Source: Marsupella aquatica
Lineage: Eukaryota; Plantae; Marchantiophyta
DNA length: 64,000 nt
Assembly: GCA_973895155.1 (NCBI GenBank)
Contig: OZ316893.1
Location: forward strand, 15,592,645 to 15,656,644
Direction: 5' to 3'
Shown: one piece after another, positions 383 through 28,517 of the stretch
Numbering within the stretch: position 1 is the first letter of the stretch
Layout of the letters: each line of letters begins with the position of its first letter
Notes under the pieces: model-generated
Told to the model about the DNA's origin: nothing
Seen by the model: the letters and a program-made list of their open reading frames with translations, nothing else
Database searches by the model: none
Translations under genes and position numbers: made by a program

Positions 383-3300
383 TAGATAGATATATGATCA
401 ATTATTGCATGGTGTATATGAGGCTGGGTTGCATATGGACGAATAGGGTACATTTCGAGGCTGCTATATGGTGAATCCACCTTTCAGATTTTGTCTCATT
501 CATATTTTGTGTCAAGTATTTTGATTATAATGTGCCTTAACAAGGTAAATCATTTGTATTAATTTGATTTTTGAATTAACTTTAGGACCCCTCTTAATTT
601 TATTGAACTTAGAGTATTTTGAATGTATTTGGCTCCCCTCATCAAGGTTTAATCTTTTCTTTTCAATCACTCCTTAGTGAATTCTCTTTTTTCTCATGAG
701 AGTGTAAGAAATGAATTTGATCAATCTGAACATCTGGTGTATTAAGTTCCCCTCATGGTTTACTTTGCAAAAGTTATGGTTTTAATTGAGTTGAATGTCA
801 TTACCCAGAAGCAAGTGAAAATCTCTACTGTATGTACACAACTCAACTCTTTAGTACCTTTGTACTTTCTGGGTCATAATATAATTTGATGTGCATATAT
901 TTACGTGTCCCTACTTAAATGAATTACATATCACTAGAAGACAAAAAAAGAGACATGTTCCAGGATGAACATGCTATATGGACGACATGGGTTGGCATGG
1001 GTGCGTGGGTGAGATGATTGAAGGGTGTTGAGTGGGCAGCAGTGGGGGGCAGATCTCCCTGTCTTACACAGGGCTTGAGGCACAATTCAGCAAACAAAGT
1101 GGGGAGGGAGAAGGACGAGGAAGAGAGAGGGGACAAAAACAAGGAAGAAAATAATGAAAGAAGTGGGAGGAAAGAGATCAAAGGGAGAAACAAGTGGACT
1201 TCACAGGAAAAGAAAGGGGAATGTGTGGTGGGAGAGGGGGACGCTGGGTTTCGAGGCCAAGTAGATTGAAGGGAGGCTAGGGTGAAAACAAGTTGTGTTT
1301 GGGTGGGGGGGGGGGAGCGGAACAACTTTTGCGTAGGCAACACTTCCACTAACAAGCTTCTCAACATTTATATCAAAACTGCGAAAGAACAAAAAACTAA
1401 GTCAAACCTGAAGACAAGATGCCAAAGGTGGAAACCCGATAAAGAGGGGAAAGGAAAAAAGAGAGAGACCCAAGAAAACCCAAGAGGCCTCACTAGCCCC
1501 AGAGCACTACCAACCCCAAAAGAAGACAAAAACAACAATTATGGTCGATAACACTTTCCTTTGACAGCAACTATGCTGAACATAGGTTTGTTTTGCCATT
1601 TTTTTGTTCAACAATTTTTATCGTCGACATCTTTTCAGCTCAATATATTTTTGTTCAGTTTTATGCTCAACATTATTTTCACTTTATATTTTGTCTGCTC
1701 GAAAATACTGGGCTAGGCAGGGACAGGCTAGTCAAGATGAATTGAGATTGAAGACCAGGTTTTCTTAGCAACGTAAATAGCATTGATTTTAAAACTGGAA
1801 GAAGAGGTCTGGAGGGGAAATTCATTTTGGAAGACAGGAATGAGCTCGGAAATATATTCAAAACCATCTCAACCAAATTGGAGGGACTCACATTCGATTC
1901 GAATGGTACCCGCTCCTGTCACGAACGAATTGAATGAAGATGTCCGCAGTAATCGGTCCTTTTCTATTAGCGCAGATAGCACAAATTCATAAGAAATTGG
2001 CCTTTTCGTTGGATCTGCTCGGTATCCACGAGAACTGTACGAACTAGCATTAAAAGCCAGTACTCTGCTCTGTATCAGGCTTGTTGGGTGGTGAAATTGG
2101 TAATAACAAAGTTAAGTGTGCAAAGCTCGTAAAGGGACGTTGAGGATCATTTAATATTGATATCCTGCGCTGCCTGGAGAGCTACATTGGGAATCACCGA
2201 TCACTACTATTTGGCGGACTGCGCTGCGGAACAATGCGTCAAAAGTTTCATTGAGATTCGTGTCAACTTGCTCTGCTACAGGCTATTAGAGTCACACAAA
2301 TCTGGCTTATTGAGACTTGCTCTTCCACAAATTGAAAGGAAAGATGGGTCAAGACAAAAAATAATTGGTAACATCTAGCTTCCTGGAATTCAGATACAGC
2401 TTAAATGCAATTGCTCAGTTGGCAACTTCAAATGTGAACTCTGCCTTCGCAAATTTGTGTCCTACAATGCAAGAGGGGCCATCGGGCAGACATATATCAG
2501 GAAATCTGGAATTGTCTACCTACCTATGCCGCCAAAGAATAAAAGAAAAGTCTGTGTTGCTTGGCATGCCTATCTAATTGGTCTGCCTAAGAATGCGTGG
2601 ATTCGGGCTTGACTTCAACTTTGATATGAACTCATCCGCAATTCAGTTACCCTGCAGATGCTCTACATCAAGTCTAAACTATGTACAACTTTCCCATTTT
2701 TTGTGGGCCAAACAAATTGCTAAGCCCATGGTGTATGATAAACATCTAGCTGCTATAGAATTTCCTGTACTGACGTGGCCAGTATGTACAGATGGGTTCC
2801 ACCCGACCCCTTGCTGCATGTACAAACAAATTGAACAGGGATGGATAATTAGATGTCCAGAAGTGCGTTACATCCGATGCCCTCAATGCTGCCTTCCCTC
2901 CCGGCTTCCCTCCACTCTGTGTCAGCCTTGCCCATGAGCAGTCGACCAGTCACGATCCCAGCAAAGCAGGGGTTTTACAGTCTCTGGGTTGCACTGAAAC
3001 AACTTGAATCATGTACATCGCTGATTCAATCAGCTGCTGGGCAGGAGTGCAACTTGAATCACCCAACAAAATCACCGGTAAAATCATTGTTGAGTCGAAC
3101 TGCTGAACTGATCCATGATAGCTCCAATTACCGCTTGTAGCATCATAAAACATACGCCGCAATTGGCTTTGGATGTGATGGGCCTCAGCTTGACCTCCAC
3201 ATAGGACACTGCGACCATTTTGGAGGACCCATAAATTCGCTGCAATTGGCGACGTGGCAGCTTCCATCCATGGTAAAGTTGTGGAAGCTGGGTACTCCAA

Positions 3301-3433
3301 TCACTTGTTACAGCCCATCACAACAAGCTTGATCGAGAGACCACCGGCACTGCCTGCTCACGTGGATGTCCTGTACCCTCAGCCCAGTAATGTAACTTGA
3401 ATCTTATGAATGCAATTAAACCTGCTACAAATT

Positions 3434-3523
3434 CTATGAATCTCCATCGTCATTGTTGTCATCGGCTGATAACCAGGTTGGTGGTGGTGATCCAGGATAG
3501 CCAAATGTCTCATTAGGATCCAT
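3434..3523 (-). CDS. small ORF A3, 29 aa MDPNETFGYPGSPPPTWLSADDNNDDGDS
   Basis: Manual translation ATG 3523 to TAG 3434. Paralog at 21906-22001 keeps the frame through a 6-nt indel and a TAG/TAA stop change. Confidence 0.7.
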   Translation of the reverse strand: MDPNETFGYPGSPPPTWLSADDNNDDGDS

Positions 3524-3618
3524 TCTAAAGCTGCACTGCTCGCGGACAGTGAACGAAATCCTCTGCTTCTTTGCTGAATTGAGGGTGACTCCCGGTGACA
3601 TAAAATAACCCGAAGTGT

Positions 3619-3702
3619 CTATCGACGGCCAGCATTATCCTGGCCAACCAACCACGGTGGTGATGTGGTGTTCGGATATCCGAATTGCTCATTGGGATCC
3701 AT
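3619..3702 (-). CDS. small ORF A2, 27 aa MDPNEQFGYPNTTSPPWLVGQDNAGRR
   Basis: ATG 3702 to TAG 3619; corresponds to the C-terminal part of track ORF 3619..3843. Same motif as its neighbours. Confidence 0.65.
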   Translation of the reverse strand: MDPNEQFGYPNTTSPPWLVGQDNAGRR

Positions 3703-3832
3703 TAGTAACCCACCAAATCGGAATTTGGGCACGAGGACTACACCTTTCTGTGTGTTTGTATGCTGGCAGGATCGTTGATGGCTGACTTCACTGTGAATGA
3801 TGTCGAAGTCAAGAAAGCCGAGCTCTGGCTCC

Positions 3833-3916
3833 CTACTGATCACCGTCGTCAGATGAACAGGACAACCACGGTGGTATGCTAGTACCGGTGTATCCGAATT
3901 GCTCGCTGGGATCCAT
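3833..3916 (-). CDS. small ORF A1, 27 aa MDPSEQFGYTGTSIPPWLSCSSDDGDQ
   Basis: ATG 3916 to TAG 3833; paralog at 22304-22384. Confidence 0.7.
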   Translation of the reverse strand: MDPSEQFGYTGTSIPPWLSCSSDDGDQ

Positions 3917-4229
3917 TGACAAAAACTTTCTGGTGAATTGCGTGCAGGGATATGTAGTAGCTAAGTGAATGCAGATTCAGAGTCGTGAGCCTACAGCTGA
4001 GCCGTTGCTCACTATGAAATCCAATGCTGAATGAATCGATTGCAGATGGTGAATAATCACAAAGCCACTAAGATTCCGACAATCTTACTCCCCGAATCCC
4101 AGTCGAAACGAAAGGATGCGAGTGCACGATTCACTCTTAGAAAAGTCCCAAACTAGAAATCTTAGTGTCGAAGACACGATGAGAATTGAAGGCAGACGGT
4201 CTCGAGAGGAAGATATCCGACGCAACGAC

Positions 4230-4305
4230 TTCACAGCTGAACGAGAGAGCGAGAGATGAAAATGAGAATGATTCCAGAGGAGAGCACGGGGTTTATTTTA
4301 TGCTT
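4230..4305 (-). promoter_or_regulatory. putative core promoter / CT-rich leader start of cassette A
   Basis: Minus strand GCATAAAATAAA TATA-like box (~4303-4292) followed by pyrimidine-rich TCTCTCGCTCTCTC. An equivalent GCATAAAAGAAA lies at ~22666-22654 in copy B. Confidence 0.4.
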
Positions 4306-6081
4306 CCCTTTAAGATGGAGTACTCCTGAAGCATCAGTTCGACTGCAATCTCGCGGGCTTCCTTAGCTGTTTTCCTCAGATGCGTCACTGAAAAGTCGGG
4401 CAGGGCGGGTTGAGGTTCCCAGGACTCCAGGAGGTCCAGCTTTTCCTCTCCAGACCGGTAAAACCTTCAGTGGTCGCCGTGGACGATCCCAGAAACTTTA
4501 ACCGTGTCCATCGTTCTCTTTGCTCGCATCCCAATGCCATGTCAGCGTCGGAGGGGACTACCGGTTCATGGCAATGAATCATATTCGGGCAATGCCGTCT
4601 TACGCGGATTTTCTTGTCTGCCGGGAAATTTGGGGGCTTTTCGAAATTCTGTCATTATTATCGTTATTCCGTTCACACGCAATGGTCCTGCAAACCGGAC
4701 GTCGACACGTAGATACAGAACTGCAGCTGCAAAAGTGCTCCCTCATCCTATGAGCAGAAACACGCGGGCTTCAACTCAACCGGCTCTACCTGGTCAATCC
4801 CCGTATTATCTGGTAATTACGTGTAGTGCAGGCTTTCCTGACGAGGGACACAGTCGTTGGAATCTACGACTGTGCACCGCGAACCATCGATGACAGAAAT
4901 GCAGAATGATGCGCATGCAACCACGGCCCTTCGTAGCTAACGGATTTTATGGGGTGATTATCCAGCCCGGTTGCAAGGACACGAGTGGGCTTTGAGCTAA
5001 ATTTCCCTAGCGCGACTGAACCCTGGCGGCATTACCGTGCGTGCGGTCAAATCCGTGTACATACAAGGGAAGAACGAACGATCCACCCTACGATCGTCTG
5101 GTTGCGGATCAAGATAATTCATTACGTGAAGCAATCTCGAAGAGATATTGCCTCCTCTGGTTGAGCTGTTCCAGATAAACCCCTGATTTCGGTAGCAGCA
5201 TGACCCCTCCACCACAAGCTGCCACGAAATGGACTTTGACGGCCATGGGAATTGCTGTGCAGGACAAATGCCTCAAATAACTCGATTTCGTGTGATGAAA
5301 GTTGGCCCAAAATAGCTTGGCCCAAATGTGCATGCCCTCATTGAGTAGTGACCATTTGCTGAACAATACGCCCCCACCCCCCCAAACAATGATTACTGGT
5401 GTGTGACACTTTCCAAAGGACACTAATTACTTACAATAGGGTAAAGAGGGTACTAGTTCTCCCCACCTCTCGCCTTCTCTATTAGTATGGGCAGCTTCCA
5501 AATCTACCTCAAGTGATTATATTAATGTGGCTTTAGAAGTTGGGGCACTTTTGATGTTTTTCTACCAAAGCTAATCCCCCAAGGGTTTTACATAATTATC
5601 TACAACTATAATTTATAAGGGCTAAAAGAGAGCTTGGAATCCTTTTAGGGTCCCAAAGTGTCCGTAAGACCAACTGAGCAAGTGCACTGGAGTTATTTGA
5701 TAAGAGACAAGTTGGGGAGGGACCCACTCCACCTTAAAAATCACATAGTGATCTGGCTGGTGCCCTTCTCGCTACAATATGATGAAGGGACTGCGGTTTC
5801 ACTTTTAATGCAAACGAGTGGAAATAAGAATATAGCTACACCGTAAGTTCTAACACTTTGCTATTTTAACTTATTGAAAATGATGTAAAAATGATCTTAT
5901 CATATAGTATTTGAGTTTATAAAAGTAATCATTTGAATTAAAGTACATAAATGATTTTATTGTGAAGAAATAGAGGCGCATCAATCTCAGACAGCGTGCC
6001 TTGTACAAGCCATAGAATTTATAAATTTAAGTAATTTAAGTAATAAATATTTATCATGTCAGAAGCCTAATGTGTAGCATA

Positions 6082-6145: not shown

Positions 6146-6219
6146 AAGTAATAATTATTTCACATCAAGATTATTTTGAAGAGAAAAATTATATAAGAAT
6201 TGTGAAAAGGAGTACAAGT

Positions 6220-6581
6220 GCAAAAAAGAAAAACAAAGGATTTTGAAATAACAAAAACATATAGGGGGTCTGAGATAAATTCAAAACTTATGGAATATTA
6301 ACAAAGAAGACAGCCCTCATAGACCAAATTAAAATTAAAATAATGACAAAACAAAAATGAACTAGGAAGACTGAAACAAAGATTCGCCATATAGCAATGT
6401 TGCAAAAAAGAAAAACAAAGGATTTTGAAATAACAAAAACATATAGGGGGTCTGAATAAATTCAAAACTTATGGAATATTAACAAAGAAGACAGCCCTCA
6501 TAGACCAAATTAAAATTAAAATAATGTCAAAACAAAAATGAACTAGGAAGACTGAAACAAAGATTAGCCATATAGCAATGT
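6220..6581. repeat. tandem duplication, 2 x ~181 bp
   Basis: gcaaaaaagaaaaacaaaggattttgaaataac...atagcaatgt repeated nearly identically at 6220 and 6402. Confidence 0.9.
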
Positions 6582-9500
6582 AAGAAAAATAAGAATAAAC
6601 CAAGCCCGAGGATGAACTTACCTCCAATAGAGATGGACTACAAACTAGGATAATAAGTGAATGTGCTCCGTAAAAGCAAAACTTGCGTCCCACTCCATTG
6701 CATGTAGTATTAGCAGCAAAACTTGGGTCCCGCATGTAGTATTCGCAACAGTTTAGCAGGAAACAGCCCCCAACTTCAAGTTAAATGAACTGGAACAATA
6801 TCTTTCCATTCGACGGTGCCGATGACATCCTGGAGACCAAAAAATTAGAGTAAATTGCGCCCAAAGTCTTGTAAATGCACCTTAGACTAAGGAAGGAGTT
6901 AACCTGTTGGTCTACGATGCAATGATCCATGCACATTGCTTACATTCATGCATTGCGATGCACTCCTCACACGGCCCTGGCCTCGTCCTCGTCTCTTTAC
7001 CATTGTCGCAAAACCAAGCGTAAAACCAAAATAGCCATAATCTCTGGCTGGCTTTTCTCTCATTTTCTGGTCCAGCTCGATCACTATAATGGGCATGAAT
7101 GCAACCACAGTAGGGCATGTCCAGTTGAGATCTTGAGTGAAAAAGCTCAAAAGTTCAACAAACATTAAAGTAACCCTAAATCCCCAAGAATGATTAGAAA
7201 AATTGAATATATATCCTTTATGTACATACATGCCTGAATTGCTTGATTCGTTGTAATCTTCATTCGAATCCCTGTTTCAACTGTTCTGTGGTTCCTGCAC
7301 CATTAAAGGGAGATTCGCCAATCACACAAGAGGTGCAGGATAATGCATTTGCATCGGAGGTATGATACTCAAAACAAGAATTCCTAACCACATGACCGAC
7401 GAATTCTTACGTTGGGTTAACAATATATATAAGCATGGACGGGATGCTTGATGACTTTTGAGTTCACACATGATGCGCATCTTCGGCTGATAGGACTGTA
7501 CCTCGGGGGGATTTACTCTGATTGCATGGTTTCATCTTACCGACCTTTATCAATTCCACTAATTTTAAGCAAAGATCTTTCGACCTGTGTTGTCCATAAT
7601 GCTCGGTAACTTTGCATAATATTATCGTTCATCGCGACATAAGCTCAGAGACCCAAGATGAAAGACTTTTATCGATGAAGAACGATATTAAAAGTGAATT
7701 TTCAACAGGCTAGGTGCAACCCACCAGAACTACTTCTGTCAGTGGCATAGAGGATGCCTCGAAGTACAACCAGTCTGACAAACTGCAAGTTGTGTACGTG
7801 GCGTTTTCCACCTATCGTAAATGAAAGTCACGTTGAAGCTAAGGTCTGGAAGATTGACATGGTAGCTTTGAGTTCGCCAGTAACACATGTGGGACCGACT
7901 CAATCCACAATGAACTTAATCGTGTTTTTCATGCTTGGACGTTTCGGAGATTACTGTAGATAACTGTATGATGCCATTTATAATCCAAAATGTTACTGCT
8001 GAGGGACAAGTCTCCCATCATTGTGTACTGCTACAGTCCTACGAAAGATTGGAACAGAAGAACTAGAGTACCTTTCAGGGCACTCATCTCGCATCTGCTG
8101 TCGTATTTTTAGAATTTTTAATGGGGGCAAAAGCCCAAACTGTAGTATATGTCTACGGGGCTCAGGCAGCACAAACTTACTGGCAGACCCAATTATGTCT
8201 CTTTCTTCAATTTGAACTCGCCTTCCCGTGTTTCCAGCAGTCGCTGAATTCGACCGGCATGCCAGTGACATGTTGGCTGTACAGCATCAGATAACCACTG
8301 CTGCAAACATGTAGAAATGTCTTTCATCACCGGGGTCTGCAAAGACATGTAGTACCTGCTTATTGCTTCCAAGCGAATGATTGCATTCAGATTTTATCGA
8401 CGTTCAAGAGATAACAATTTCTGCCGCAATTTCTATTCAATCGTTTCCTATTCAATTGTTTTTCCAGCGAGTATGTAGTGCCTGGGGAGGGTCTGCTGAA
8501 ATTAGCAATATTACTACATGCTTGTTGAGCTTGCAAACTGAAGTTCCGCTATATACGTCGAAAGTCTAGCTACCTTGTGATTATGACCGTTGTGATTCTT
8601 TCCAAATTACAATTTTAGCCTGCATTAAATGTTTAAACCTACGCCCTGCGTTCTTTCTGGCTGCCAAAAGTGTTCTTTGAATCGCGGGAATGGTTGACCT
8701 CTGAAGACTTATCTACAAATCTTCGATGAATCCCTACTATATATCACTTTGAATTGGGTAGTTTGATTAACAATAATAGTCGAGTTAAATATGAGGGGAC
8801 AGCGTTCAGTGTCACGTCTAGGACACAATGAAAAGTACTACCTCCCAACGCCATGGTCCTGCATCCTCGTCGGCAATCGCATCGGAATCCCATATTGAAA
8901 GTAAATTCATAGTTTCAAACATCTTGCAACCTTTTCTAATCTTGCCCATGACCCCCGGTAGCTCGGATTTAACTTTTTCCCATCTACATACATTGTCTTC
9001 CTTTGAATGCCGCCCGTGGCTAGGACCAGCAAAGCATTTAATCAGCGAAAGGCTCTAATGATTACCATCAGCTTAATTTTAGTATCAGCCCATAGTTGCG
9101 ATTTGATGTTGTTATCCAAACTTGACTTGCCAGGTCAACTTCAGCGACCTTGGCGAACCAAGTTCGGACAACAGCATGAAATATGAAAGGACCGCGCGTA
9201 CATCAGTTTATAACTTTCCAAGCCTTCCGGTGGGGTTGTTGTGCTGTTCATCCGTTGGACATCATGTGATCGTGAAAGTCTGTCTTCCCCACATCTGCCT
9301 TCTAAACGGTTCAGATTAGATTACTACTGAAGGCAGAGCAACAGATCGAGGCCTCACAAATCAATCTTTCAAGCTGCCGGTATTCATCTAGCCATAATCT
9401 GAAGACTTTGCATAGCTTTGACAGTATCGGTGCTTCTGCGTCTCTGATTGAAAAGGTTTCACATACTCATTGTAGTTCAGAGCTTCAACCACCTAGAATC

Positions 9501-13692: not shown

Positions 13693-14113
13693 TGTTGGGT
13701 ATTTACTCTTACGTCTAGGTTAGGTATGACGTGGTTGGTACAACAACGTGGGTTGGTACAACTATGTGGTTAGGTACAACTACGTGATTAGGTACAACTA
13801 TGTGGTTAGGTACAACTACGTGATTAGGTACAACTATGTGGTTAGGTACAACTAAGTTGCACACTATATCATAAGAGGCATGTGTGCTTGGAGAGGAAGG
13901 ACCAAGGCTCATTGTTATGGAGCCACTTGAGAGATAGGGAGAGCTTACACTGTGGAGACTCGGTATAGCCGACGGGCTTAGAGTTCAGTAAAGCTCTCTT
14001 GTGTGTTCCCGTGGACGTAGCCTCAAGGAGGTGAACCACGTATCTCTTGTGTCGACTATTGTGCGTTGGATGGTTCATGGGCTTGCCGTTGCGATCGTCG
14101 TCTATGCTCAACA
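13693..14113 (+). repeat. 5' LTR (421 bp; seven 18-bp GGTACAAC units)
   Basis: Starts tgttgggtattt, ends ctatgctcaaca; matches the 3' LTR apart from repeat number. Confidence 0.95.
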
Positions 14114-14115
14114 AT

Positions 14116-14127
14116 TGGTATCAGAGC
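14116..14127 (+). promoter_or_regulatory. primer binding site (tRNA-iMet)
   Basis: TGGTATCAGAGC 2 nt after the 5' LTR, the canonical plant iMet PBS. Confidence 0.93.
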
Positions 14128-14647
14128 ATGCTTGGGAGGTGACGTGTGTTCGTGACGGGATTTCATTATGGTTTTTCCAGCGTTGAGTGTCGGTGGATTT
14201 CCCGGAGTTCCGTCGCATGGAACTTGGAGTTTATGGGCTCAACGGATAGATCGGGGCAAGAGCTTTCTAACGGTGTGAAGAAATCGCTGAACGGAGCTCG
14301 TGGTGCAGAGAGATCTAAGTTTTCGTCGTTCTGGATTTTGTGAAGAAAGTTGGCAATCGACTCGGAGGGAGAAGCGTCAAGTGTTTTGACTCAACGGAGA
14401 GATTGAGGCAAGACGATTGTTTTGAGTCCGGGATTGGCTCTTTGATGCAAAGAGGAAGGCTAAGCAAAATCAATTACCTTGTTGGATTGGTGACGGCACC
14501 AAGTGCAATTGATCAACATTCGTTATTGACAAGGGGCAGAGAGAGGAGCAGGAGGAAGAGCACGTGACACCGATACCATTACCGGTGCGGCGTGTGGTGG
14601 AGGAAGCAGTACTACTACCGGAGCTCACGGTAGTGCCAAAGAAGAAG

Positions 14648-15505
14648 ATGGGGACTTTCAAGCTTGGGGGACCCAAGTATGAAGTGACAAAGTATGATGG
14701 GCGCTCTGACTACTTGCTATGGGAGAAGCAGGTGAAGGGAGTGCTCTATGCGTCAGGGATGGGCCAACTGCTGAGCACTCGTGAAGACGATGTTGATGAG
14801 AAACAATGGGACCGCATGCAGGAGCAGGGAGTGTGGTGTGTTACACTCTATCTCATGCCTCCCATCATCAAGCAGTTGGGTGCACATAAGGATTGCATGT
14901 CCTTGTTTGCGGAATTGCAGAGCAAGTATCACCGCAAGGAGTTGTCAAACCGGCTCTACACTTCCTACAAACTCATGAGTTTCAGGATGAAGGAATCCGG
15001 CACAAAGTTGCAAGACCATGTGGATGCTTTCAACGACATGGTCGTTGACTTGGAAAACTTTGGGGAGACTTTGAATGATGAGACGAAGGCTCTGCAGCTT
15101 CTTAGTTCATTGCCTCCATCTTACCAGTCCCTATCACGAGTGTTGTTGCATCGTGATAGGGATACCATTTCATATAATGACGTGGTAAGTTCTCTGCTTA
15201 GTGATGATCTTCAGCAGAAGATGCACATCACATCACAGCCTTCATTATCTGGTGCTGCCCTCAATGTTAACCGTGGGAGGGGTATGTAGCGACCAACTGG
15301 GGACCGTAGAACCCAGTTTAGATCTAAATCCAGATCTAAGTCCAAGGGTAAATCCCCTCAGAGGAGGCAGGTGACATGTTGGAAGTGCAACCAAGTTGGA
15401 CACTTCAAGCGAGACTGTAAGGGAAAGGCAGCGGAAACTTCATCGGCAAATGTGGCTAGGGCTGATGGAGAAGCTGATTTACTCAATGATGAGTATGTTT
15501 TATGA
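14648..15505 (+). pseudogene. gag: copia gag (UBN2-like region + CCHC zinc knuckle), in-frame TAG at 15287-15289
   Basis: KYDGRSDYLLW...LLSSLPPSY; the frame continues past the TAG to CWKCNQVGHFKRDC, then reaches TGA at 15503-15505. Confidence 0.88.
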
Positions 15506-18500
15506 AGTCGGGGGTATGCCCTGTGCACGTCATCTAGGAGAGCAGATGATGTGTGGATTCTTGATTGTGCTTGCTCTTTTCATATTTGTTACATTCGTGA
15601 GTTTTTCAGTTCTTACTCTATTTCAAACGGTTCAGTTCTGATGGGAAATGATCACTCCTGTCAAATTGAGGGAATTGGGTCTGTGAAGATTCAAATGTTT
15701 GATGGCGCTGTGCGCACAGTGTCCGGAGTCAGGTATGTACCTGGCATGCGTAAGAATCTGATTTCACTCGGTGTGTTGGATTCAAATGGTCATCAATGGA
15801 GCGTTATTGATGGTGAACTTCAAGTCAGGTCGGGAGAGACAGTGATTTTGAAGGGGAGTAGACAAAAGAATTTGTATGTGTTACAGGGCAATACTGTATG
15901 TGGAGAGGCCAATGTAACCAAGTCTCACGAGGAGATGACTCAACTGTGGCATTCACGGCTAGGCCACATGAGTGAGAAGGGTTTGGCTATCTTACGGAAG
16001 AATGGACTCATTTCTGATTTGCAATCTTGTAAATTAGAGTTTTGTGAGCATTGCATTCTTGGAAAGCAGCATCGTCGTGCTTTTGGTGTTGGAACTCATC
16101 GTTCCAAAGCGGTTCTTGAGTACATACATAGTGACGTGTGGGGTCCATCCCCGACTCCCTCACACTCTGGAAAGTTGTACTATGTATCATTTATTGATGA
16201 TTACTCAAGATTTGTGTGGATTTATTTCATGACGCATAAGTCTGATGTCTTGTCCATTTTTAAGAAGTGGAAGGCCCAAGTGGAGAATCAGACTGGAAAC
16301 ACGATCAAGTGTTTGGATACAATGGTGAAGAGTTTGAGGTCAGACAACGGCGGGGAGTACACTTCAATGGAATTTGAAGAGTACTGTTCAGAACAGGGGA
16401 TAACTCGCCATCTCACCACAGTTTATACTCCGCAGCAGAATGGTGTCGCTGAGAGGCTCAATCGGACACTATTGGAGCGGTCACGGAGTATGTTGAGCCA
16501 ATCAGGTTTACCACAAGAATTTTGGGCAGAAGCTATCAATACCGCAGCTTATTTGGTAAATCTTTCTCCTTCTAGTGCTATCAATTTCAAAATGCCGTTT
16601 GAGATGCGCTATAAGCGGCAAGCAGACTATCATGGCTTGGTAGTTTTTGGAAGTGATGCATATGCTCTCACACCGAAGCAGAATAGGACCAAGTTGGATC
16701 CTACCTCCAAGAAATGTGTTTTTCTTGGGTACCAGAGTGGTGTGAAAGCCTATAGGCTCTGGGATCCTATTGCCTGTAAGCTCGTTGTCAGTAGGGATGT
16801 TTCCTTCAATGAATCCAGATTATTGAAGGAGGGGGAGAATACTCAGGTCTCCCGTACTGACAAAGGAAAATCTCCTATCCCGGATCTCATTGAGGGGGAG
16901 ATTGGTTATGAGGTGCATGACCGAAGAGAAGGAGTTACTCCAATTATGGAGCTGGTTCCTGTGCCAGAGGAACCAGAGGAGTTTGTTGATGCTGGTGAGC
17001 AGCAAGTGGATGTTGTTGAGCTTCAAATTGTACCAGCACACGCAGATCAACCGAAGTCATCGGCTAGAAGAACATCTGGTCGCACTGTACGTGCTCCACC
17101 AAGGTATGGACAGTGGGTTGATTCATCTCAACTGCAAGAAAATGATTTTGCAACTGATGATGAGGGTGATGCGTTAATTTTGGAAGAAGGGGAACCTTCT
17201 TCATTTCATGAGGCAAGTGCTTCAAAGGAGAAGCAGAAGTGGACTGCAGCAATGCAAACGGAGATGCAGTCACTAAAGGACAACAAAACTTGGGAGCTTG
17301 TTAAGCTGCCTAAGGGTCAGCAAGTGGTGGACAGCAAGTGGATTTACAAGCTGAAGGATAATTCCATAGGAGGTGGATCGAAGGTCTACAAGGCTAGGTT
17401 GGTAGCAAAGGGATTCACACAAGAGAAAGGTGTGGATTACAATGAGGTCTTCTCACCAGTTGCTAAGTACTCTACAATACGACTATTGTGTGTACTTGTT
17501 GTAATGTTTGGTCTGCTGCTAGATCAGATGGATGTTGTCACAGCTTTCCTCTATGGCACATTGGAAGAGGTGATCTTCATGAGACAACCGCTAGGTTTTG
17601 TGAAGAGAGGACAGGAGGAATTGGTTTGCAGATTGCTGAAATCCTTGTATGGTTGAAGCAGTCACCAAGACAGTGGAACAAGCGGTTTGACGATTGGATT
17701 CGGTCACAAGGTTTTCACAGAAGTGTATTTGACCCTTGTGTGTATTTGAAATCGGTAAAGAATATTGTATTTGGGTTCATTGTTTTAATACTTTATGTGG
17801 ATGATATGCTAATTGCAGCCAAGGATAGGTCTGAGATTGTTAAGCTCAAGGTACTGCTTAGTGCAGAGTTTAAGATGAAGGACTTAGGGCCAGCTAAGAG
17901 GATTTTGGGTATGGAGATCACTAGGGACTTGGAGGCTGGCAAGCTATGGTTGACGCAGAGCAGTTATGCGAGGAAGGTAATTGCAAGATTCAACATGGGG
18001 AATAGCAAGCCAGTAAGTACCCCGTTGGCTCCACACTTCAAGTTATCATCAGCGTTCTGTCCTACGGATGACACAGAGAAGGGGTTGATGTCAAAGGTTC
18101 CGTATGACAAGGCAGTGGGGAGTCTCATGTATTTGATGACTTGCACTAGACCTGATCTTGCCATGGCTATGGGCAAGGTGAGCAGGTACATGTCGAATCC
18201 AGGGAAGGTACACTGGGAAGCAGTGAAGTGGATTATCAGGTACTTGAAGGGTACTGTGGATCATGGTCTTTTATTTGATGCGAATGCAAAGAATGCTAAA
18301 TCATTGATTGGCTATGTTGATTCTGACTATGGACAAGATTTGGACCGAAGGAGATCAACAACAGGATACATGTTCACACTTGGCGGTGGATGCATAAGTT
18401 GGAGGTCTACTTTGCAGAAGTGTATTGCTCAGTCTACTACAGAAGCGGAGTATGTTGCAGCTGCGGAAGCAGCAAAGGAAGCGATTTGGTTGGATAGACT

Positions 18501-18777
18501 TATCACTGAAATGGGATTGCCACAGGGGAATGTGAAGCTCCATTGTGATAGTCAAAGTGCGCTCCACCTTGCTGTGAACCAGGTGATGGACAGCAGAGTG
18601 AAGCACATTGACGTTAGGTACCATTTTATCAGGCAGGCTGTGTCTGATAATTTGTTTGAGCTAGTCAAGATTGATGGTAAACTCAACCCGGCTGACGCAT
18701 TTACCAAAGTGATTCCTTTGGAGAGTTTCTCTAGACACCGTGACGTATTGCAGGTTTTGCAATTGCATCACAAGTAG
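15506..18777 (+). pseudogene. pol: copia pol (protease, integrase, RT, RNase H) with 1-nt frameshift near 17651-17656
   Basis: WILDCACSFH (PR), HSRLGH/CEHC, HSDVWGP, LRSDNGGEY, NGVAER (IN), YKARLVAKG, LYG/LKQSPR split by the frameshift, YVDDMLI (RT), GYVDSDY and KHIDVRYHFIR (RNase H). Confidence 0.95.
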
Positions 18778-18949
18778 AGTTTTCTTAACATTCATTGTAA
18801 TTACTGATATATGCTCTTCCTCATTCCTATGTATTAGGCTACGGCTTAGTTCTGGTTTGCTCTAGTTAGAGAGGGAAACCGGTTTGGTTTTTGTCCAGAA
18901 CTTCCCGCTGAGGGATCATATACATTGGCAGTATTACTCTCCCCTAGAC

Positions 18950-18967
18950 CAGAGTCAAGGGGAAGAT
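18950..18967 (+). promoter_or_regulatory. polypurine tract
   Basis: Purine-rich agagtcaaggggaagat immediately before the 3' LTR. Confidence 0.75.
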
Positions 18968-19352: not shown

Positions 19353-21905
19353 AACAATAGGGTCTTTTAGATACAATTTTGAGACTTACAAGGGCATTAG
19401 GTCTTTTCACTCACTTTATAGCAGTTAACAAATTCTAGAATACATATTCTTACATTTTAGAGTGTTTGAGGCCTAAAAACTTACTATTGTAGCATCTGTT
19501 TTCCCTCTATAAGGGGAAAACAAGATAAAAACATATGATTTTTAAAACTCCAGATGAATTGGGAGTGAAGACAAAGTTTTCATTGATTTTAAAAATGGAA
19601 GAAGCGATGGTCTTGGAGGAATACAAAGTTTTATTGGGAGGAAGGAAAACTAAATTTGGAAGCTGACCACGTGCAAGATTTGGTTGGATTTTTTTTATTA
19701 AAGACCATCAAATCAATCAAAGTGGAGGGACTGATATATTTGATTGGAATGGTACCTTCAACTTCAAGGCAAGGAATTGAACGAAAACAAGTCAACAGTA
19801 ATAGATCCTTTTATACAAAGTTAGTATAAGAACTGAGAGTTGACGCTATCCAGGATTCATTCAGCATCATAGATGCTTTTCCCTGCCCAACTTGCTTTCA
19901 TGTCCGAGTAGAGTCATGGCAAACTAAATTTGTCGTAAGCACTTTTTGGATTTGGAATTTTTGTCCCCAACTATTAAGATTACTAACCTTCGCTAGAGAT
20001 TTACTTGAGCCATGCCTTGTCAAGCTCGCTTTCTGAATCTCTGCCAGCTTGTTCTTAATAGTTGGGGACAAAAAAGGGAGCTTGACAAGTCATCCTTTTC
20101 TAGAGTGCGATCCCATTCAGCCACTAATTTAAGGTGGATGGCCTTTCTTTACTATAGGAAACTTTTGGCTGTCATTTGAGCACTGATACGCCAGAATGTA
20201 CATGGTAGGTGGTGAACCCCAATGAGTAGTGGCTGATGATCTCTATACTGGTTTTTGTGGCCAAAGTTTAGACCACCTGAAGAGGGGTCTAAACTTTTGT
20301 CTGCTCAGATTTTGGATTGCATTGCTTGCATTAGTCACATTGGCCCTCCGTTCAGCTTAGGCCTGGAAGCTCACATAAATGTCCACTTGTTTTGGTCTAG
20401 AAGCTTCCAAAATTCTAGTGAGTTTTACTAGGAGGAGCGGACATTTATGTAAAACCCCACTAAAATTTTGGCCCTTTCGTTGGATTTGCTCGGTATCCAC
20501 GATAATTGTACGCTTCAGTGAAATTGGTAACATTGGTACAGTCCGTGTGCAGAGCTCGTAAAGTGACGCTGAGGATCATTATTTTGATATAATATCCTGA
20601 ACTGCCCGAAGAGCTACATTGTGAATCACCGATCAGAATTCGTTGAATGTTGCTCTGCTACGCGCAGAGTTACACAAATGAGTCTCATTGACACTTGCTC
20701 TTCAATCCATAAATTGAAAGCAAAGATGGCTCACGACAACCAAAACTTGGTAACATCTACCTTCCTGGAATTTAGATACAGATTATGTAAGTGCTGAGTT
20801 TGCAACTTCAAACGTGAACTCTGCCTTCGCAAAAATGTGTCTTAAAAGAGAAGCAAGGACATCGGGCAGGTATATCGCAGAAAACGGAACTCTGAAATAG
20901 TCTACCTAACTATGACAGGAATAATGATCCGCCAAAGAATGAAAGAGAAGCATGTGTTGCTTCGCATGCCTATCCAATTGGTCTGCCCTAAGCTAATGAT
21001 GGTCTGTCCGAGAATGCCAGGAATTGCTAGTATGTGCAGCTTGCAATTCGTATCTGTGACTGATTTGCACCCTCATTCTGGCTGGATACAACTTCAACTT
21101 TGATACATACTCATCCGCGATTCAACTATCTTGCAGATGCTATACATTAAGTCTAAGCTAAGCGCACTTTCGCACTTGATTTGTGGGCCAAATGCTAACC
21201 GATGTTGTATGATAAACATCTACAGTAGCTGCCGAGGAAATTCCAACACTGATGTGGCTGCTAGGTACAGATGGGGTTCCACCGCACCCCTTGCTGCATG
21301 TACAAACAAATTGAACATGGATGGATAGTTAGATGTCGGAAGTGCGTTACTTCCGATGCCCTCAGTGCTGTCGCCCCTACACTCTGTGTCAGCTTTGCCC
21401 ATGAGCAGCCGACCTGTCACGATCCAAGCAAAGCAGGGGTTTTACAGTCTCTGGGTTGCACCGAAACAACTTGAATCATGTACATCACTGATTGAACCGG
21501 CTACTGGGCAGACGTGGAAGCTGAAGCACCCAACAAAGGCACCGGTACAATCATTCAATTTGTTGAGTCGAATAGGTGAACTGATCCAGGCTGAAGCGTT
21601 GATAGCTCCAATTACCGCTTGTAGAATCGACCTTTCGCAACAGTTGCAGCATGTGGTCGGCCTCAGCTTGGCCTCCACACAGAACACTACGAACATTTGG
21701 AGGACCCATAAATGCGCTGCAATTGGCGACGTAGCAGCTTCCATCCACGCTGAAGTTGTTGAAGCTGGGTACCTCAATCGGTTGTTACAGCCCATCACAA
21801 CAGCTTGAGAGACCACCGGCACTGCCTGCTTACGCGGATGTCCTGTATCGCCGGCCCAGTAATGTTACTTGAACCTCATGAATGTCAACAAGCCTGCTCC
21901 AAATT

Positions 21906-22001
21906 TTATGAATCCTCATCGTCATTGTCGTCATCGTCATCGACCGATAACCAGGTTGGTGGTGGTGATGCAGGATAGCCAAATGTCTCATTAGGATCCA
22001 T
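21906..22001 (-). CDS. small ORF B3, 31 aa MDPNETFGYPASPPPTWLSVDDDDDNDDEDS
   Basis: ATG 22001 to TAA 21906; paralog of A3. Confidence 0.7.
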   Translation of the reverse strand: MDPNETFGYPASPPPTWLSVDDDDDNDDEDS

Positions 22002-22099
22002 TTAAAAGCTCTGATGAAACTGCTCGCCCACTCTGTCAATTCGACAGTGAACGAAATCTTCTCTATCAATCTGCCTCTTTGCTTGTAAGTTGAGGATGA

Positions 22100-22213
22100 C
22101 TAAATTCCCGTTGACATAAACCCGAGGTGTCTATTGACGGCCAGCATTGTCCTGGCCAACCAACCATGGTGTGATGTGGTGTTCGGGAATCCGAACTGCT
22201 CATTGGGATCCAT
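22100..22213 (-). CDS. small ORF B2, 37 aa MDPNEQFGFPNTTSHHGWLARTMLAVNRHLGFMSTGI (1-nt deletion relative to A2)
   Basis: ATG 22213; ACATCACACCATGG versus ACATCACCACCGTGG in A2. The ancestral stop would be at 22131-22133. Confidence 0.5.
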   Translation of the reverse strand: MDPNEQFGFPNTTSHHGWLARTMLAVNRHLGFMSTGI

Positions 22214-22303
22214 TAGTAACCCTCCAAATCAGAATTCGTGCACGATGACTCCTCCTTGATCGCTGACTTCGGTGTGAATGATGTTGACGTCAAGAAAGCC
22301 AAG

Positions 22304-22384
22304 CTAGGCTTCCTCGTCAGATGAACAAGACAACCACGGTGGACTGTCGGTATTGGTGTATCCGAATTTCTCGCTGGGATCCAT
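22304..22384 (-). CDS. small ORF B1, 26 aa MDPSEKFGYTNTDSPPWLSCSSDEEA
   Basis: ATG 22384 to TAG 22304; paralog of A1. Confidence 0.7.
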   Translation of the reverse strand: MDPSEKFGYTNTDSPPWLSCSSDEEA

Positions 22385-22975
22385 TCACCAAAACTCTCGG
22401 AAATATTTCGTGAGCCTACTGCTTGAGCCCTCTCTCACGATGAATGCATGAATCACAAGCCACTCAGATTCACTGCTCGAGTGCCAATCGAACGGAAAGG
22501 ATGCCAACGCACGGTTGACTTGTGAGAAGTAATGTCAAATTAGCGATCATGTGGAGCACACTATGAGAGAAGAAGATATGGGATGCAAAAACTTCACAGC
22601 TAAAGTGTGAGAGAGACGACGAAGACTAGAATGCATTCAGTGGAGAGCAGTGGGTTTCTTTTATGCACTCCTCTGGCGATCGAGTACTCCCCAAACATTG
22701 GTTCGACTTCACTCTCGACGTCACTCGCTGAAGCTGTTGTGTCCGGCTGGCGGTTTTCCTCAGATTAGTCACTGGAAAGTCGGGCAGGGCCGGGCGAACT
22801 TCAGAGGAGGTCCAAAATTCGACTCCAGATCGGTAAACTTTCATCAGTCCCAGTGGAAAACCCGGGAATCTTTACCCATGTGGATCATTCTAGTTGCTCA
22901 TGATACTTTATCAAAATGCCATGTCACCGCCGTAATAAGGTCGGACGGACTGTTCCGTTCAGGGCACTGAATCAT

Positions 22976-23561
22976 GAGGGGTCTCAAACTTACATTTATT
23001 TATTCCCCATTGGCACCCCGTATTTCCCTGGAGCGGGCCGCCCAGATGAGTTGATCGGCCCACGAATTCGGTGACCTGAAGTTTTATCCTGAGCTTTTTA
23101 GTGACCCGGTCGTCCGCTCTGTTCGCTGTGTTTGCTATATACCGGCCTCCACTTCCGTCTGGAGGCAAAGTTCAAAACCCATGTTTTGGGACACCCGATT
23201 TTGGGTCGTGGTGTTCATTGTCAGGTGGGGGCCGGAGAAATCCAGGAGACTAGAGTTTTTTTAGTGGTGAAAATTAGCCAGATTACACCTACTCCACCTC
23301 CCCAAAAAGCTTTCGCCCACTTTTGATGAAAATTGGCTATTGTAGTTTTATCTGTCTCATTAGCCGGTGCCTCACCTAATCACAGGCCAGTTAGCCAGAT
23401 CTAACAATCACCCTTAAATCAGATGAGATCTGACGGTCAGTAAACGAGTCCAATAAAATCAGATAAAGAAGATTTTGTGCATCTTGTCCTTCACGGAGTC
23501 GACATTCGCTACTCTGGGGAGAAAGTGTAAACCTTATTAACGGGGCTGGTTGAGACGGCCT
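22976..23561. mobile_element. ~585 bp MITE-like insertion upstream of cassette B
   Basis: Copy A reads gaatcat|attcggg contiguously (~4577-4590); here that junction is split by sequence with imperfect TIRs gaggggtctcaaac / gttgagacggcct. Confidence 0.6.
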
Positions 23562-23994
23562 ATTCGGGCCCAGCCAGCTGCCTGGGAGTTGGATTTGCGG
23601 CATTTGCCGGCTTGCCGGGGAATTTGACGGCAGAAATTCTGTCATTATGATAGACTCGCAGTGTCACACGTAAGGTTCCTGCCAGCTGGGATCCGACAGG
23701 AAGCATGCATTGGAGGATTTGGAGGCTTGGAGCAGCTACGCGAATCGTGGGCAGAAACACGCGGGCTTTACCTCAACCGGGTATACCTGGTCGACGCTTG
23801 TTCGAAGGTCCAATCTCCGTGTCGCCGGGAATTGCGTGTATTATTTCTTTGACTAGGTATTATTAGGTCTCCCGCGGGCAGGTAAGAAAATGAACATGAT
23901 TCCCGTATTTCAGAAAAGGTAAAGCGACATGATAAGACTGTTTCTTGTCTAATTAATTTTGATTCATTAAAATTTGATCATGAGGGTATCTCAA

Positions 23995-24759
23995 GAACTT
24001 AAAGTCCTCATGGACACACAGGTTTGCTAGGATTTACCCTGATGGACACAACCATGTGACATTGTAAGAAGAATTTCCAATGACAACTAACAAACAGATC
24101 ACCCGTCTTTAATTAACGGAAGGAAACCTTACTTTAGACATTCAAAGAGACGAGTCCCTGGAACAGGATTAACTCTACCTCGGGAACCCTCCATGGAGTC
24201 CAAGAAATTTAAATAAAATGTCAGCTACTGTCAAAAGATTGCCTCCAGGGAGTCCAAGAAATTTAAACAAACTCTCCCACAAACAGATGCAAAGGGAAAA
24301 AGGCACTACACAAGAGGGGATAAGAAAGTTGAATTAAGTTAAGTCTCTAATTGAGAGGGAGCCAGGTCAGTAGTGTGTAAGGTGATGGCCTGAAAACTAA
24401 AGAGATGGGTGCAAAAAGGGGGGAACTCAGGGTGCTCCTTCCGGTAGGCTGTGAGGGAGTCCCGAGGTACAGTTAATGTTGTTCCAGGGACTCGTCTCTT
24501 TGAATCTTTAGACCTTATGGTTGAGTTAGTCGGTCACCGCATCCTTGCACGGAGGAAAAAATGGACAGAATACAGGAAGAATCAACCGAATACTGACTGG
24601 TCCCAGTCACATACCTCCTTACAGGTCACTTTGGGATTACAACCAAAAAGTGTGTTACAAGAGTAAAAAATGAAATCCAGTTTGTGTCCATCGGGTTGTG
24701 TGTGTCCATTCAATCAGGCTTTCTTCCAAACATGTGTGTCCATGGGGGCTTTAAGTTCA
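23995..24759. mobile_element. Mutator-type (MULE) MITE, ~765 bp
   Basis: TIRs gaacttaaagtcctcatggacacacaggtttg / caaacatgtgtgtccatgggggctttaagttc; 9-bp TSD GTATCTCAA at 23986-23994 and 24760-24768. Confidence 0.85.
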
Positions 24760-26006
24760 GTATCTCAAAGATTCAAAATTATGAATGATGACATTATACC
24801 AAAAAAAATGATCATAACCTTTATATAAATATATGTCACCAACCTCTACAATGACTAATGGTATGGCGGGTGGTATGGCATAAAACCAATCCTTATGACA
24901 AAAGTTTTTAACAACTTTGAGATGTCCTATTAGACTTATACTTAAATGTAGAAGCTGAAGCACTGAAAAGTGAGGTGAAAAAAAAAACTTAATATGTGGA
25001 AGTGTAAAACCTCAAGTGAGACCTGTTAACTAACCAAAACTGAGGTTGAATGAGTTTTAGTATCATTCTCAAAATTGCAAGTCAAGTACAGAAACGGTAT
25101 TGAGCAGCAGCAGCTTCTGATGAATTGCAGCAGCACAATCATTCAAGACCAGCTCCAAGCTATAGCTTTAAAGATCACCGTGTTTGCACTGAGGGCAATG
25201 ATTCAAAGCCATTTTCTAGAAAACAAAACAAGAAACTCCAACAGCAAAGGTAGAGAGGGTTAAACAAACACAGAGCTTTGCACAATTAGTTTAGCAATGG
25301 AGGAAAAATCATGAGAAGCAAATCCAGAGCCATACACAGCATATACGTTCTCTCTTTCTCAAATGCTCTATGGCAACACACTTGTTCTCAGAGCCTCCTT
25401 GGTGGCACAACGCAAGCAAAGTTGGACAGACAAACTCTGGGTGACTTTCAATAAAAACAGCTTTTGGAAGCATGAGTGCAATTTCACCCCTGATTCAAAC
25501 ACCCAACTGTCATATTGGGTTGGAAACCTAACTCACACCGAACCCAAGTTACATGACTGTTGACTCACCCACCTTCTGGCACTTTACACTAAGCTCTATT
25601 ATATTGCACTAGATTAGTCATAGATGAAAACTGGCAAATCCAGGTTTTAGCCAAAAATGACTGACCCTTGTGGTTAATGACGTGACTTAAAACCAGGTTT
25701 TAAAGAAGGCATCTATACGTAGATAGGTTTAATTGCACATACGCTATCTTGCTTGCATTTTTTATTATCAAAACAAGTACAGTACAGCCGAAATTGGCAC
25801 ATGAAACTCATGCTTGTATTTCCTCAGGGACAGAATTTTTTTAACTTATAGAAATTTTTACGGCTTATGGATATCTGGACTTGTCAGGGACCAATCAGTG
25901 ATAGAAACTTGTCAGGGACAATCAGTGAAGAATATATGACAATACACCGCGAACCATCGACTACAGAAATACAGAATGATGCGCATGCAACCCGGTTTTC
26001 ACTGTC

Positions 26007-26795
26007 GGACAATATGTGTCCTTGTCCGACACGACAAATGATAATTTGTCCGCCCAAAAATGATAATTTGTCCGCCCAAAAATGCTCTATTTGTCCAATA
26101 TTCCCTTATCTTCCCCGGCCGAGACCAAAAAATTCCTGGCCCACACCCGGCCTGGTCAAAAACTTTCCCGGCCCGGTCCTAAAATCTCCCGGCCAAGTCC
26201 CGGACGCCCCCGGTTAAGTGAGCCGGCCCCTGGTTTAGGGTCGGGGCCGGGGGTTAGGGGGTCGGGGCTGCAGTGGGGCACGGGGTCAGGGCAGGGGGGT
26301 AAGGGGAGGTCAGGGGGACGGGGCCGGGGCGGACCGGGGAGGGCCGGGAGGGGGAGGTTGGGGAGGGGGAGGTTCGAAGGTTGGGGTAGGGGAGGTCGGG
26401 GGGGGGGTCGGGGAGGACCGGGCGAGGGGCAGGATTGGGGCGGGGAGCAGGGCCGTGGGGGAGTGGAGGTCCGGGGGGAGACGGCCGGACCGGGATGGGA
26501 GGCGGGGTCGGGCCGGGGAGCAAGGCCGGGGGGGGAGGGGAGGTCCGGGGGGAGACAGCCGGGCCGGGGAGGACCGGGATGGGAGAGAGGGGGGGCCGGG
26601 TAGGGCAGCGGGGCCAGTGGGAGGGGGAGGTCCGGGTGGACGTGGCCGGGCTGGGGAGGACCAGGCCGGGGTTTGGGGGAGGGGTCCCGACCCGCCTCTA
26701 TTTTCTCCCGGCCCAACCCTCTCACCTGGCCGGGATTGGCCGGGATCGACTGGGACGACATATGTCATTTGTCGTCCCAAATCCTCCTATTTGTC
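26007..26795. repeat. extremely G-rich low-complexity insertion, probably a non-autonomous DNA element
   Basis: Dense G-runs (ggggagggaggtccggggggagac repeats); imperfect inverted ends ggacaa...acgacaaatga / tcatttgtcgt...ttgtcc; absent from duplication copy A. Confidence 0.55.
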
Positions 26796-28517
26796 CTTTG
26801 TACTTATTTTAATGTTACTGGATCATTCCGCCCTATTTAACAAGGGAGTAAGTCCCTAACGCGACTGTTCCCTGGCTGCATTGCCGTGTTTGCGGTCAAA
26901 TCCATTCTAAATACAGACGGAGAACTCCTGCTTGCGGCTCAAGAGACTTCATTGCGTGAACCAGTCTCTTGGAGATACTGCCGCCTCGAGTTGAGCTAGA
27001 TAAACCCTCGATGCCGGTAGCTCCATCATCTTTCCACCACTGGTTGCCAAAAAATCATTGTACTTGGCCTTGCATTGCGTCAATCCCACGATTGCTTACT
27101 TCTGCCCAAAGTTGGCCCAAAACAGCCATATCTTCACGTGGTGAAATGTGGTAATCGAGGCGCTACGGCATTACATGAAAGTAATGTGTGCTTCATCTGA
27201 ACCGGTTACATCTGAGAACTTAGTTTTAGCGGGTGGATGGGGTAACACAGAACTACAGCCGGGGTGGACCACAATGTTTGACAAATGACTTGCATCGACC
27301 ATCGCTGCCCCAGATGGATCATCTCCAAACCAACTCAGCTAGGATCATTTGGGTCTTAAAAGATGCTAGGTCAATATTAGTTGCATAGTAGAAGGCTTTA
27401 GTTCTGCTGTTGTGGAACTCTCAGGCTTTTGGCTCTTGGGCTTTGGCTCTAGAGCACTAATGTACTCTCTTATGTTCCCAAATTTCCATTTCCCTGTTAA
27501 AACAATAATTTTAGCTTCATCAATCCAGTTAATGAGCTAAGATCTCCACTCACCGGAGGTCCATGTACTAACAGACGTTTGGGAACCATCAGATCTTCCT
27601 GGAGTTTAGGAGGGGAGTCAGATCTGGCAAATAGTTCTGTTAGACAGGTCAGTACCTGGCTAAGGAAGGGAGAAAATCTGAAAAAAAAATCTTTGTATTG
27701 GTTGTTTTTTTTGTGAGAATTTGGTGTAAATTAGCCAAAAGAAGAAGGCTGCCGAGCACCCGTCAATCAAATTATTCTTAGAAAAACTGGCTGTTGCTTG
27801 ATCTGGAAACCAAACCCCATGTACATAAACACTTGACAAAAATGCATAGATGGACTAAAAATATATAAAAGTTTTGATGGTACTGATGTAGCATTCTGCC
27901 TTGGGTTAATTGATATATATTTTTTCAAGACGTGTGGTCTGGAATGAAGACTGGACACCAAGTTCAAAGAATGGTCACTCAAGCTAGTATATAACTTGAA
28001 TCAATAGGAAAACTAATGTGGGTGAGGTGGTGACATTTGTATCCCTCTTTCTTTCTATCATAAATGATAGACTGCATGTCACCTTACACTGAAATTTTGA
28101 CATAGAAGTCAAAGGTGATTGACCACCAATTTCAGTTATTAGAATTTGTTGGTCAAGACACTCCCTACCAATTATAATTTCAGCTCCGTGTTCTCTTGTT
28201 CAAACCTTAAAGTAAAACTTGTTCTGATACAGGTCCTTGTAACCAGACTGGCACCTTCCATTGACCCAGGGACTGGGAATGTCATAGAAGCATAAAGTAA
28301 AGTCTACCTTGTCTAGTGCAGCTCCGGGGAGACAACCCAAGCCTGCAGTTATCTATGCTATGCATGTGTTTCATAAGTGCATGTTGCACTTTTCCATATT
28401 TGTCTGTTGCACTTTTCAGTAAGTGCCTATGAAATCATTTATACACTTACACAAATGTTTTGTCAAGTCATAGATTTCTCATACCCAAAATACATGATTC
28501 AATTGAATAAGTGGAGA

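Follow-up and report, generated by a model that had tools for sequence, protein, structure and literature searches.

Can a plant make several versions of one micropeptide from a single messenger RNA? Repeated-micropeptide polycistrons are a hallmark of the arthropod tal/pri genes, with strong developmental effects. In a 64,000-nt stretch of the genome of the liverwort Marsupella aquatica (hereafter the window), three tandem short open reading frames on the minus strand had been singled out from the letters alone as a candidate gene of this type. What, then, is this cluster? Judging from its sequence, we put the probability at roughly 55% that it is a polycistronic micropeptide gene, lineage-restricted and built like tarsal-less/pri, outside both that family and IRON MAN.

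Three short frames share one motif

Do the three frames resemble each other as peptides, and only as peptides? The original prediction described three minus-strand ORFs of 27, 27 and 29 aa with ATGG starts, separated by spacers of 130 and 95 nt, and all of this was found as claimed. The elements of this cluster (copy A) are, in the direction of reading:

3833..3916, minus: sORF A1, 27 aa, ATG-to-stop, motif peptide; T at -3, G at +4
3703..3832, minus: spacer 1, 130 nt, no ATG
3619..3702, minus: sORF A2, 27 aa, motif peptide; C at -3, G at +4
3524..3618, minus: spacer 2, 95 nt, with a single ATG (3601) in frame with A3
3434..3523, minus: sORF A3, 29 aa, motif peptide with Asp-rich tail; A at -3, G at +4

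Common to A1, A2 and A3 is the motif M-D-P-x-E-x-F-G-Y-x5-P-x-W-L. A degenerate codon pattern of the motif, allowing at most 2 mismatches, matches six times in the 64-kb window, whereas 100 shuffled versions averaged 0.00 matches. The fixed register predicted for the motif positions is borne out by the alignment of copy A with the second copy described below: ten positions are invariant in all five intact peptides. From the in-frame ATG at 3601, present in copy A only, A3 reads as a 55-aa frame.

Similarity had been said to be limited to the coding part, and this is what we observe. In ungapped comparisons of four non-orthologous pairs of units, scored in 9-nt bins, identity rises abruptly at the ATG, from 17–36% over the 45 nt before it to 92, 69 and 75% in codons 1–9. 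It is 33–53% in the linker, 75% in codons 16–18 and 22–44% beyond. That the spacers are unlike each other stands for most comparisons, but two of six flank or spacer comparisons gave a shuffle p of 0.03–0.04, not significant after correction. The tails, predicted to be polar or acidic, are indeed polar, but that of A2 is not acidic and ends in two arginines.

As to their physical properties, the peptides have a pI of 4.0–4.6, are hydrophilic and nearly lysine-free, and contain no long hydrophobic stretch. The top 7-residue hydropathy among five peptides is 0.84, in agreement with the predicted lack of a signal peptide. Given this acidic, hydrophilic composition without a hydrophobic stretch, we predict that they are neither secreted nor folded.

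A second copy of the cluster

A six-frame motif scan revealed a second copy of the whole three-frame cluster, absent from the original prediction, at 21906–22384 (minus), with motif starts at 22384, 22213 and 22001. Copy B comprises:

22304..22384, minus: sORF B1, 26 aa, intact motif, diverged linker
22100..22213, minus: sORF B2, 37 aa, frameshifted, Tyr9 replaced by Phe
21906..22001, minus: sORF B3, 31 aa, intact motif; acidic tail 6 nt longer, in frame
19549..27055, minus: full extent of duplicated copy B, matching 1732–5230, plus insertions found in B only

Copies A and B are direct duplicates that match in blocks, the long ones 69–78% identical, and a Copia element stands between them. Short upstream blocks are also common to both (4619–5230 in A, 23613–27055 in B; 70–89% identity) despite large insertions in B, and are possible regulatory elements. 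In B2, one base is lost after codon 14, which throws the P-x-W-L half out of frame; across both copies, five of six frames are intact. The two spacers carry seven gaps between copies. As a duplicate, copy B has likely decayed in part or become redundant. The notion of a micropeptide family thereby gains a second paralogous locus, but both loci belong to a single genome and one of them is partly broken. No transposon domain was detected in copy A or B, the ends of which were viewed by eye and by local BLAST.

Several mobile and repetitive elements surround the two copies. The Copia LTR retrotransposon spans 13693–19352, with a 5-nt target duplication, LTRs that are 91% identical and a coding region spread over several frames. 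A CACTA element occupies 36877–42115 (minus; Transposase_21, DUF4218 and a weak DUF4216), and a PHD-finger frame at 41444–42115 adjoins its genes. Among the 120 relatives listed for the CACTA transposase, the best is 58% identical, and two from the liverwort Riccia sorocarpa are 39% identical. Tandem arrays span 45600–49984, with ~580-nt units containing an internal palindrome (45.6–49.2 kb) and ~83-nt units (49.3–50.0 kb). A long hairpin at 28514–28672 is probably a miniature transposon; it has a weak Rfam match to MIR9555, at 41 bits versus a cut-off of 119 bits. Another strong hairpin (20341–20520, z -5.6) lies mainly in a downstream insertion specific to copy B, and a recent 181-nt tandem duplication, 95% identical, is found at 6219–6604.

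An ATG-poor leader and a long downstream region

How might three frames be translated from one message? The features that bear on this question are:

4240..4302, minus: putative core promoter of copy A, a CATAAAA box followed by a pyrimidine-rich patch; transcript start probably at ~4270
3917..4300, minus: ATG-free leader of copy A, 384 nt with no ATG; nearest upstream ATG at 4334
1732..3433, minus: downstream region common to both copies, 83–85% identical over 2116–3433, patchy below
2950..3018 (in B, 21417–21485), minus: 22-codon ATG frame without the motif, identical peptide in both copies

The TATA-like box that had been predicted is present at ~4302–4296 and is kept in copy B, but it reads CATAAAA, one base off the standard form TATAAAA, and is hence weak. 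Downstream of it, ATG is scarce. Stretches of 384 nt free of ATG make up 35 of 6362 same-length windows, and the 598 bases before ORF2 of copy A (4300–3703) contain one ATG, ORF1's own, making it the rarest trinucleotide there, a scarcity matched by 19 of 6342 windows; both counts are based on overlapping windows, uncorrected for base composition. No ATG separates the starts of ORF1 and ORF2 in either copy, three (A) or four (B) lie between those of ORF2 and ORF3, and the leader of copy B contains three. Judged by position -3, the start context is weak for A1 and A2, strong for A3 and weak for B3; all starts in A have G at +4.

Reinitiation at tal is described for frames of <35 aa spaced by 40–200 nt (PMC1852585, in the part available to us), and bicistronic algal messages are depleted of AUG ahead of their second frame (PMC11892635, likewise in part). 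As far as the order of starts can tell, the layout in copy A fits leaky scanning to A2 and reinitiation to A3. The claim of leaky scanning or reinitiation is thus upheld for its sequence layout: the ATG-poor 5' end is suited to scanning ribosomes.

Leader and promoter are only ~70% identical between copies, below the gene body, which may reflect a leader intron or gene conversion acting on the body. Copy A carries GTAAG, a strong splice-donor-like site, in its leader at 4088 (minus), and the corresponding position of copy B lacks a GTRAG. This site, together with the lower conservation of the leader relative to the gene body, makes a leader intron possible.

Downstream of the cluster, the segment 2116–3433 appears to be non-coding, because just seven of its 19 gaps are multiples of three, and we infer that 1732–3433 is a long 3' untranslated region. 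That no long ORF follows the cluster is correct: the longest minus-strand ATG frame in the shared block is 105 aa. It loses its reading frame in copy B and has no Pfam match. The 22-codon frame at 2950–3018 shows two silent and no replacement changes between copies and is the best-conserved gap-free 69-nt alignment window (binomial p 0.0006, before correction for the choice of window). With eleven ATGs between A3 and this frame, scanning is unlikely to reach it, and its conservation may reflect an RNA element or chance.

Could the three frames instead be conserved-peptide uORFs that act in cis, the nascent peptide stalling the ribosome on a metabolite and thereby controlling a main ORF past a long intron, or RNA decay? 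Frame length and a 5' position in the inferred transcript fit uORFs of 10–30 codons (PMC10275272, in the portion consulted). A long region common to both copies does lie downstream, and on that side copy A reaches the window edge. However, the shared sequence stops at 1732/19549 without a common main ORF, and none of the 141 stop-to-stop frames (at least 72 aa, outside transposon and repeat blocks) passes the Pfam cut-off, two being sub-threshold. Conservation, moreover, peaks at the N-terminus, and the tails differ in length and sequence. Stalling peptides typically rely on residues near the stop, so tails as variable as these count against control in cis, which we regard as unlikely.

Signs of selection on the peptide

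If the cluster is a micropeptide gene, is the motif kept at the level of the peptide? Among A1–A3, the three pairs give pS/pN values of 0.48/0.19, 0.89/0.26 and 0.59/0.22, with silent changes favoured. All four non-orthologous pairs tested are more alike in amino acids than a random-substitution null predicts (p 0.001–0.025). As for the orthologous pairs, A1 versus B1 falls within the null (p 0.17–0.22), and A3 versus B3, which differ by one change only, carry no information; with sequences in common, the six pairwise tests are not independent of one another, and core boundaries were set after the similarity had been seen. When silent codon differences are totalled across the three A pairs, the ATG frame, which is free of stops, scores 13; the remaining five frames score 9, 2, 1, 1 and 1, and four of these five contain stops. 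The runner-up, with nine, is on the reverse strand and contains stops. Mismatches among units fall mainly at third codon positions (12 variable columns versus 7 and 5).

Copy B provides a semi-independent test, the positions having been defined on copy A alone. In codons invariant among A1–A3, two of 89 bases changed in copy B, whereas the remaining core codons changed at 11 of 72 (Fisher p 0.003); the non-coding background divergence between copies is 16%. Both changes in invariant codons sit in the broken B2, and the base lost from B2 belongs to the same class. Between copies, the cores show a pN of 8.5/108.5 and a pS of 3.5/32.5; the summed ratio is only ~0.7 because the linker of A1/B1 changed at four codons, and of the eight bases that differ between the cores of A1 and B1, seven lie in codons 11–14. 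Because these selection tests overlap in their data and rely on cores set post hoc, they back selection on the motif and are no proof of present function. Peptide-level selection on the motif is thus supported by comparison within this genome, both by the codon tests and by the second copy.

The frameshift in B2, the ATGs in the B leader and the copy-to-copy pN/pS of ~0.7 would also suit a relic, that is, a peptide unit that was triplicated and then duplicated, with both copies now dead or dying, or else three frames expressed separately. A transposon-rich neighbourhood, and outside homologues not found in the collections searched, point in the same direction. Decay of this kind is hard to reconcile with five of six intact frames, with invariant codons spared in B while the spacers gained their gaps, or with promoter-side blocks that are also common to both copies. 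Spacers of 95–130 nt offer scant space for separate promoters and terminators. We therefore consider either form of this explanation distinctly unlikely.

Are the units perhaps DNA or RNA elements, such as small-RNA sites or protein-binding sites, or exons of a repeat protein, with the short frames incidental? We think this very unlikely. The first 27 nt of the units are alike at the DNA level, Asp2 is always GAT and Glu5 always GAG, and the reverse-strand frame mentioned above is not far behind in silent differences. The bias of mismatches towards third codon positions speaks against elements read as nucleic acid, as does the lack of any Rfam match in either copy, and among the 42 folding windows of copy A just one, at the far 3' edge, falls below z -2. 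An Rfam scan of 1–30000 gave three weak matches, none in the three-ORF clusters or their downstream regions, and no hairpin common to A and B was found in 120-nt folding windows, the two strongest in B falling mainly in the insertion specific to that copy. Exons spliced into a longer ORF had been named beforehand as an outcome that would overturn the micropeptide reading. Formal in-frame GT-AG joins do exist (15 for A1–A2, 10 for A2–A3, two for B1–B2 and none for B2–B3), but none of these 27 is strong or common to both copies: none has a GTRAG donor, T content is 20–29%, and copy A lacks the acceptor used by the two B joins.

Precursors of modified or cyclic natural-product peptides, in which conserved ends guide an enzyme to a variable core, are a far-fetched alternative: short unsecreted precursors with a conserved-variable-conserved layout like the one seen here occur in plants and fungi, and the changes between A1 and B1 cluster in the would-be core, but the window frames scanned contain no processing-enzyme domain, the linker is short and polar, and we know of no message that encodes such precursors in separate frames.

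Searches for homologues and for precedent

Does the motif occur elsewhere? A profile search yielded two candidates among proteins of 14–70 aa, none at E <=10, and 688 candidates among proteins of 71–2000 aa, with no match. The sole match among 1.84 billion representatives (P0001) proved an artefact, a 3555-aa repeat protein with 20 summed 11-residue matches. Exact look-up returned nothing for any of eight queries, a single PDB match at E 0.6 was disregarded, and the ESM Atlas, queried with B3, gave no usable match. None of the five peptides has a Pfam family at E <=10, in keeping with the earlier statement that the motif matches none of the plant peptide families considered there (CLE, CEP, IDA, RGF, PSK, DVL/RTFL and IMA).

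A metagenome scan with a fixed-spacing pattern, which relatives spaced otherwise would escape, produced nine loci. All were rejected, having neither a second copy nor DNA likeness to the window: in eight the match lies inside a long frame (184–280 codons open upstream), and in the ninth, a 72-aa frame, the Pro-x-Trp-Leu patch is missing. None of 48 pattern matches in viral contigs and none of 18 in prokaryote genomes was confirmed. The collections searched are other than plant genome or transcriptome sets and seldom hold plant frames of 27 aa, so the absence of homologues is weak evidence.

In the literature as far as it was covered, the moss sORF study PMC6724668 included, we found no plant gene with repeated motif-sharing frames, a 2021 survey of moss lncRNA-encoded microproteins lying outside that scope. 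Motif strings retrieved no title on such peptides; one string occurs once in a rice ZIFL paper (PMC3041735). Among the entries consulted in a 2025 tabulation of plant sORF peptides whose function has been characterised, none has this layout (PMC12744755, supplementary table 2). The description of the motif as undescribed therefore holds for databases and literature, as far as these searches reach.

A proposed mode of action

How would a polycistronic micropeptide gene of this design work? We propose that a capped mRNA begins near 4270 and that scanning ribosomes either initiate at A1 or, its context being weak (T at -3), slip by and initiate at A2 (C at -3). After translation of a short frame, reinitiation would follow across the 130- and 95-nt spacers; A3 is probably reached mainly in this way, given the three additional ATGs that separate its start from that of A2. 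One mRNA would thus give rise to three interchangeable, unstructured peptides of 26–31 residues, and repetition of the frame would raise the peptide dose per transcript. The M-D-P-x-E-x-F-G-Y and P-x-W-L patches may dock as a two-part linear motif on a larger intracellular protein, with the variable five-residue linker holding both patches at a fixed distance and the tails free to vary.

What could that protein be? Pri binds Ubr3 (PMC11475943), and IMA binds the E3 ligase BRUTUS (PMC12744755), according to the sections of these papers at hand. By analogy with these two precedents, a ubiquitin ligase or its substrate may be the partner, a tentative prediction that we rate as doubtful.

Put together, a plant gene may have reached the tarsal-less design independently, with one mRNA, three paralogous micropeptides, a new two-part motif, and leaky scanning combined with reinitiation, retuning a ubiquitin ligase or a similar hub. 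We give this full account slightly less than an even chance. If true, land plants would gain their first described repeated-micropeptide polycistron, from a family invisible to protein databases, and the design would have arisen twice. The locus would offer a natural land-plant test bed for reinitiation versus leaky scanning, and a new linear motif whose partner could be sought with a 27-residue synthetic peptide. Repeats in which similarity begins at the ATG could also provide a cheap route to other such genes.

Comparison with known systems

Secreted plant peptide hormones such as CLE, CEP, IDA and PSK carry an N-terminal signal peptide on a longer precursor, and the five peptides described here show no such hydrophobic stretch. 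A miPEP/pri-miRNA arrangement was sought as a hairpin downstream of the frames, and none was found by Rfam or in 120-nt folding windows, which longer hairpins could escape.

Plants and their relatives do use multi-frame messages. Bicistronic loci of green algae employ leaky scanning, their first start being weak and the stretch ahead of their second frame depleted of AUG (PMC11892635), and CDC26-TTM3 is a bicistronic mRNA found across the green lineage (PMC12744755), as far as the parts consulted describe them. Both cases pair two unrelated proteins, whereas the cluster described here contains three paralogous micropeptides and no main protein was seen.

The IRON MAN/FEP peptides are likewise short, unsecreted motif peptides with an Asp-rich stretch and tandem genes that long went unannotated (10.1101/351635, consulted in part). 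Their C-terminal consensus G-D-D-D-D-x(1,3)-D-x-A-P-A-A (same source) is missing here, where the motif is N-terminal. Unlike the frames of this cluster, tandem IMA copies are separate genes.

In legumes, a single plant RNA, ENOD40, yields two short peptides (12–27 aa) that bind a larger protein (PMC12744755; PMC10638237; both in part). ENOD40, which is listed as conserved in legumes, also functions as a structured RNA, whereas here there are no Rfam matches (E <=1) and no common hairpin. The two ENOD40 peptides, furthermore, are not known to be repeats of one motif.

Closest in design are tal/pri/mlpt. The LDPTGXY motif of that family is missing here: only D and P are kept in all frames, and Glu takes the place of the invariant Gly. 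The predicted peptides of M. aquatica are 26–31 aa long, have a second P-x-W-L patch and come from a plant host. Their N-terminus is nonetheless loosely similar, with Asp-Pro at positions 2–3 and an aromatic residue at 7, and copy A, with frames of 27, 27 and 29 aa and spacers of 130 and 95 nt, falls within the length and spacing rule of tal/pri/mlpt. In the sections of the tal study available to us, several short frames likewise repeat one motif on a unit that looks non-coding, and whole-gene duplications and an unrelated extra downstream frame are found, as here (PMC1852585).
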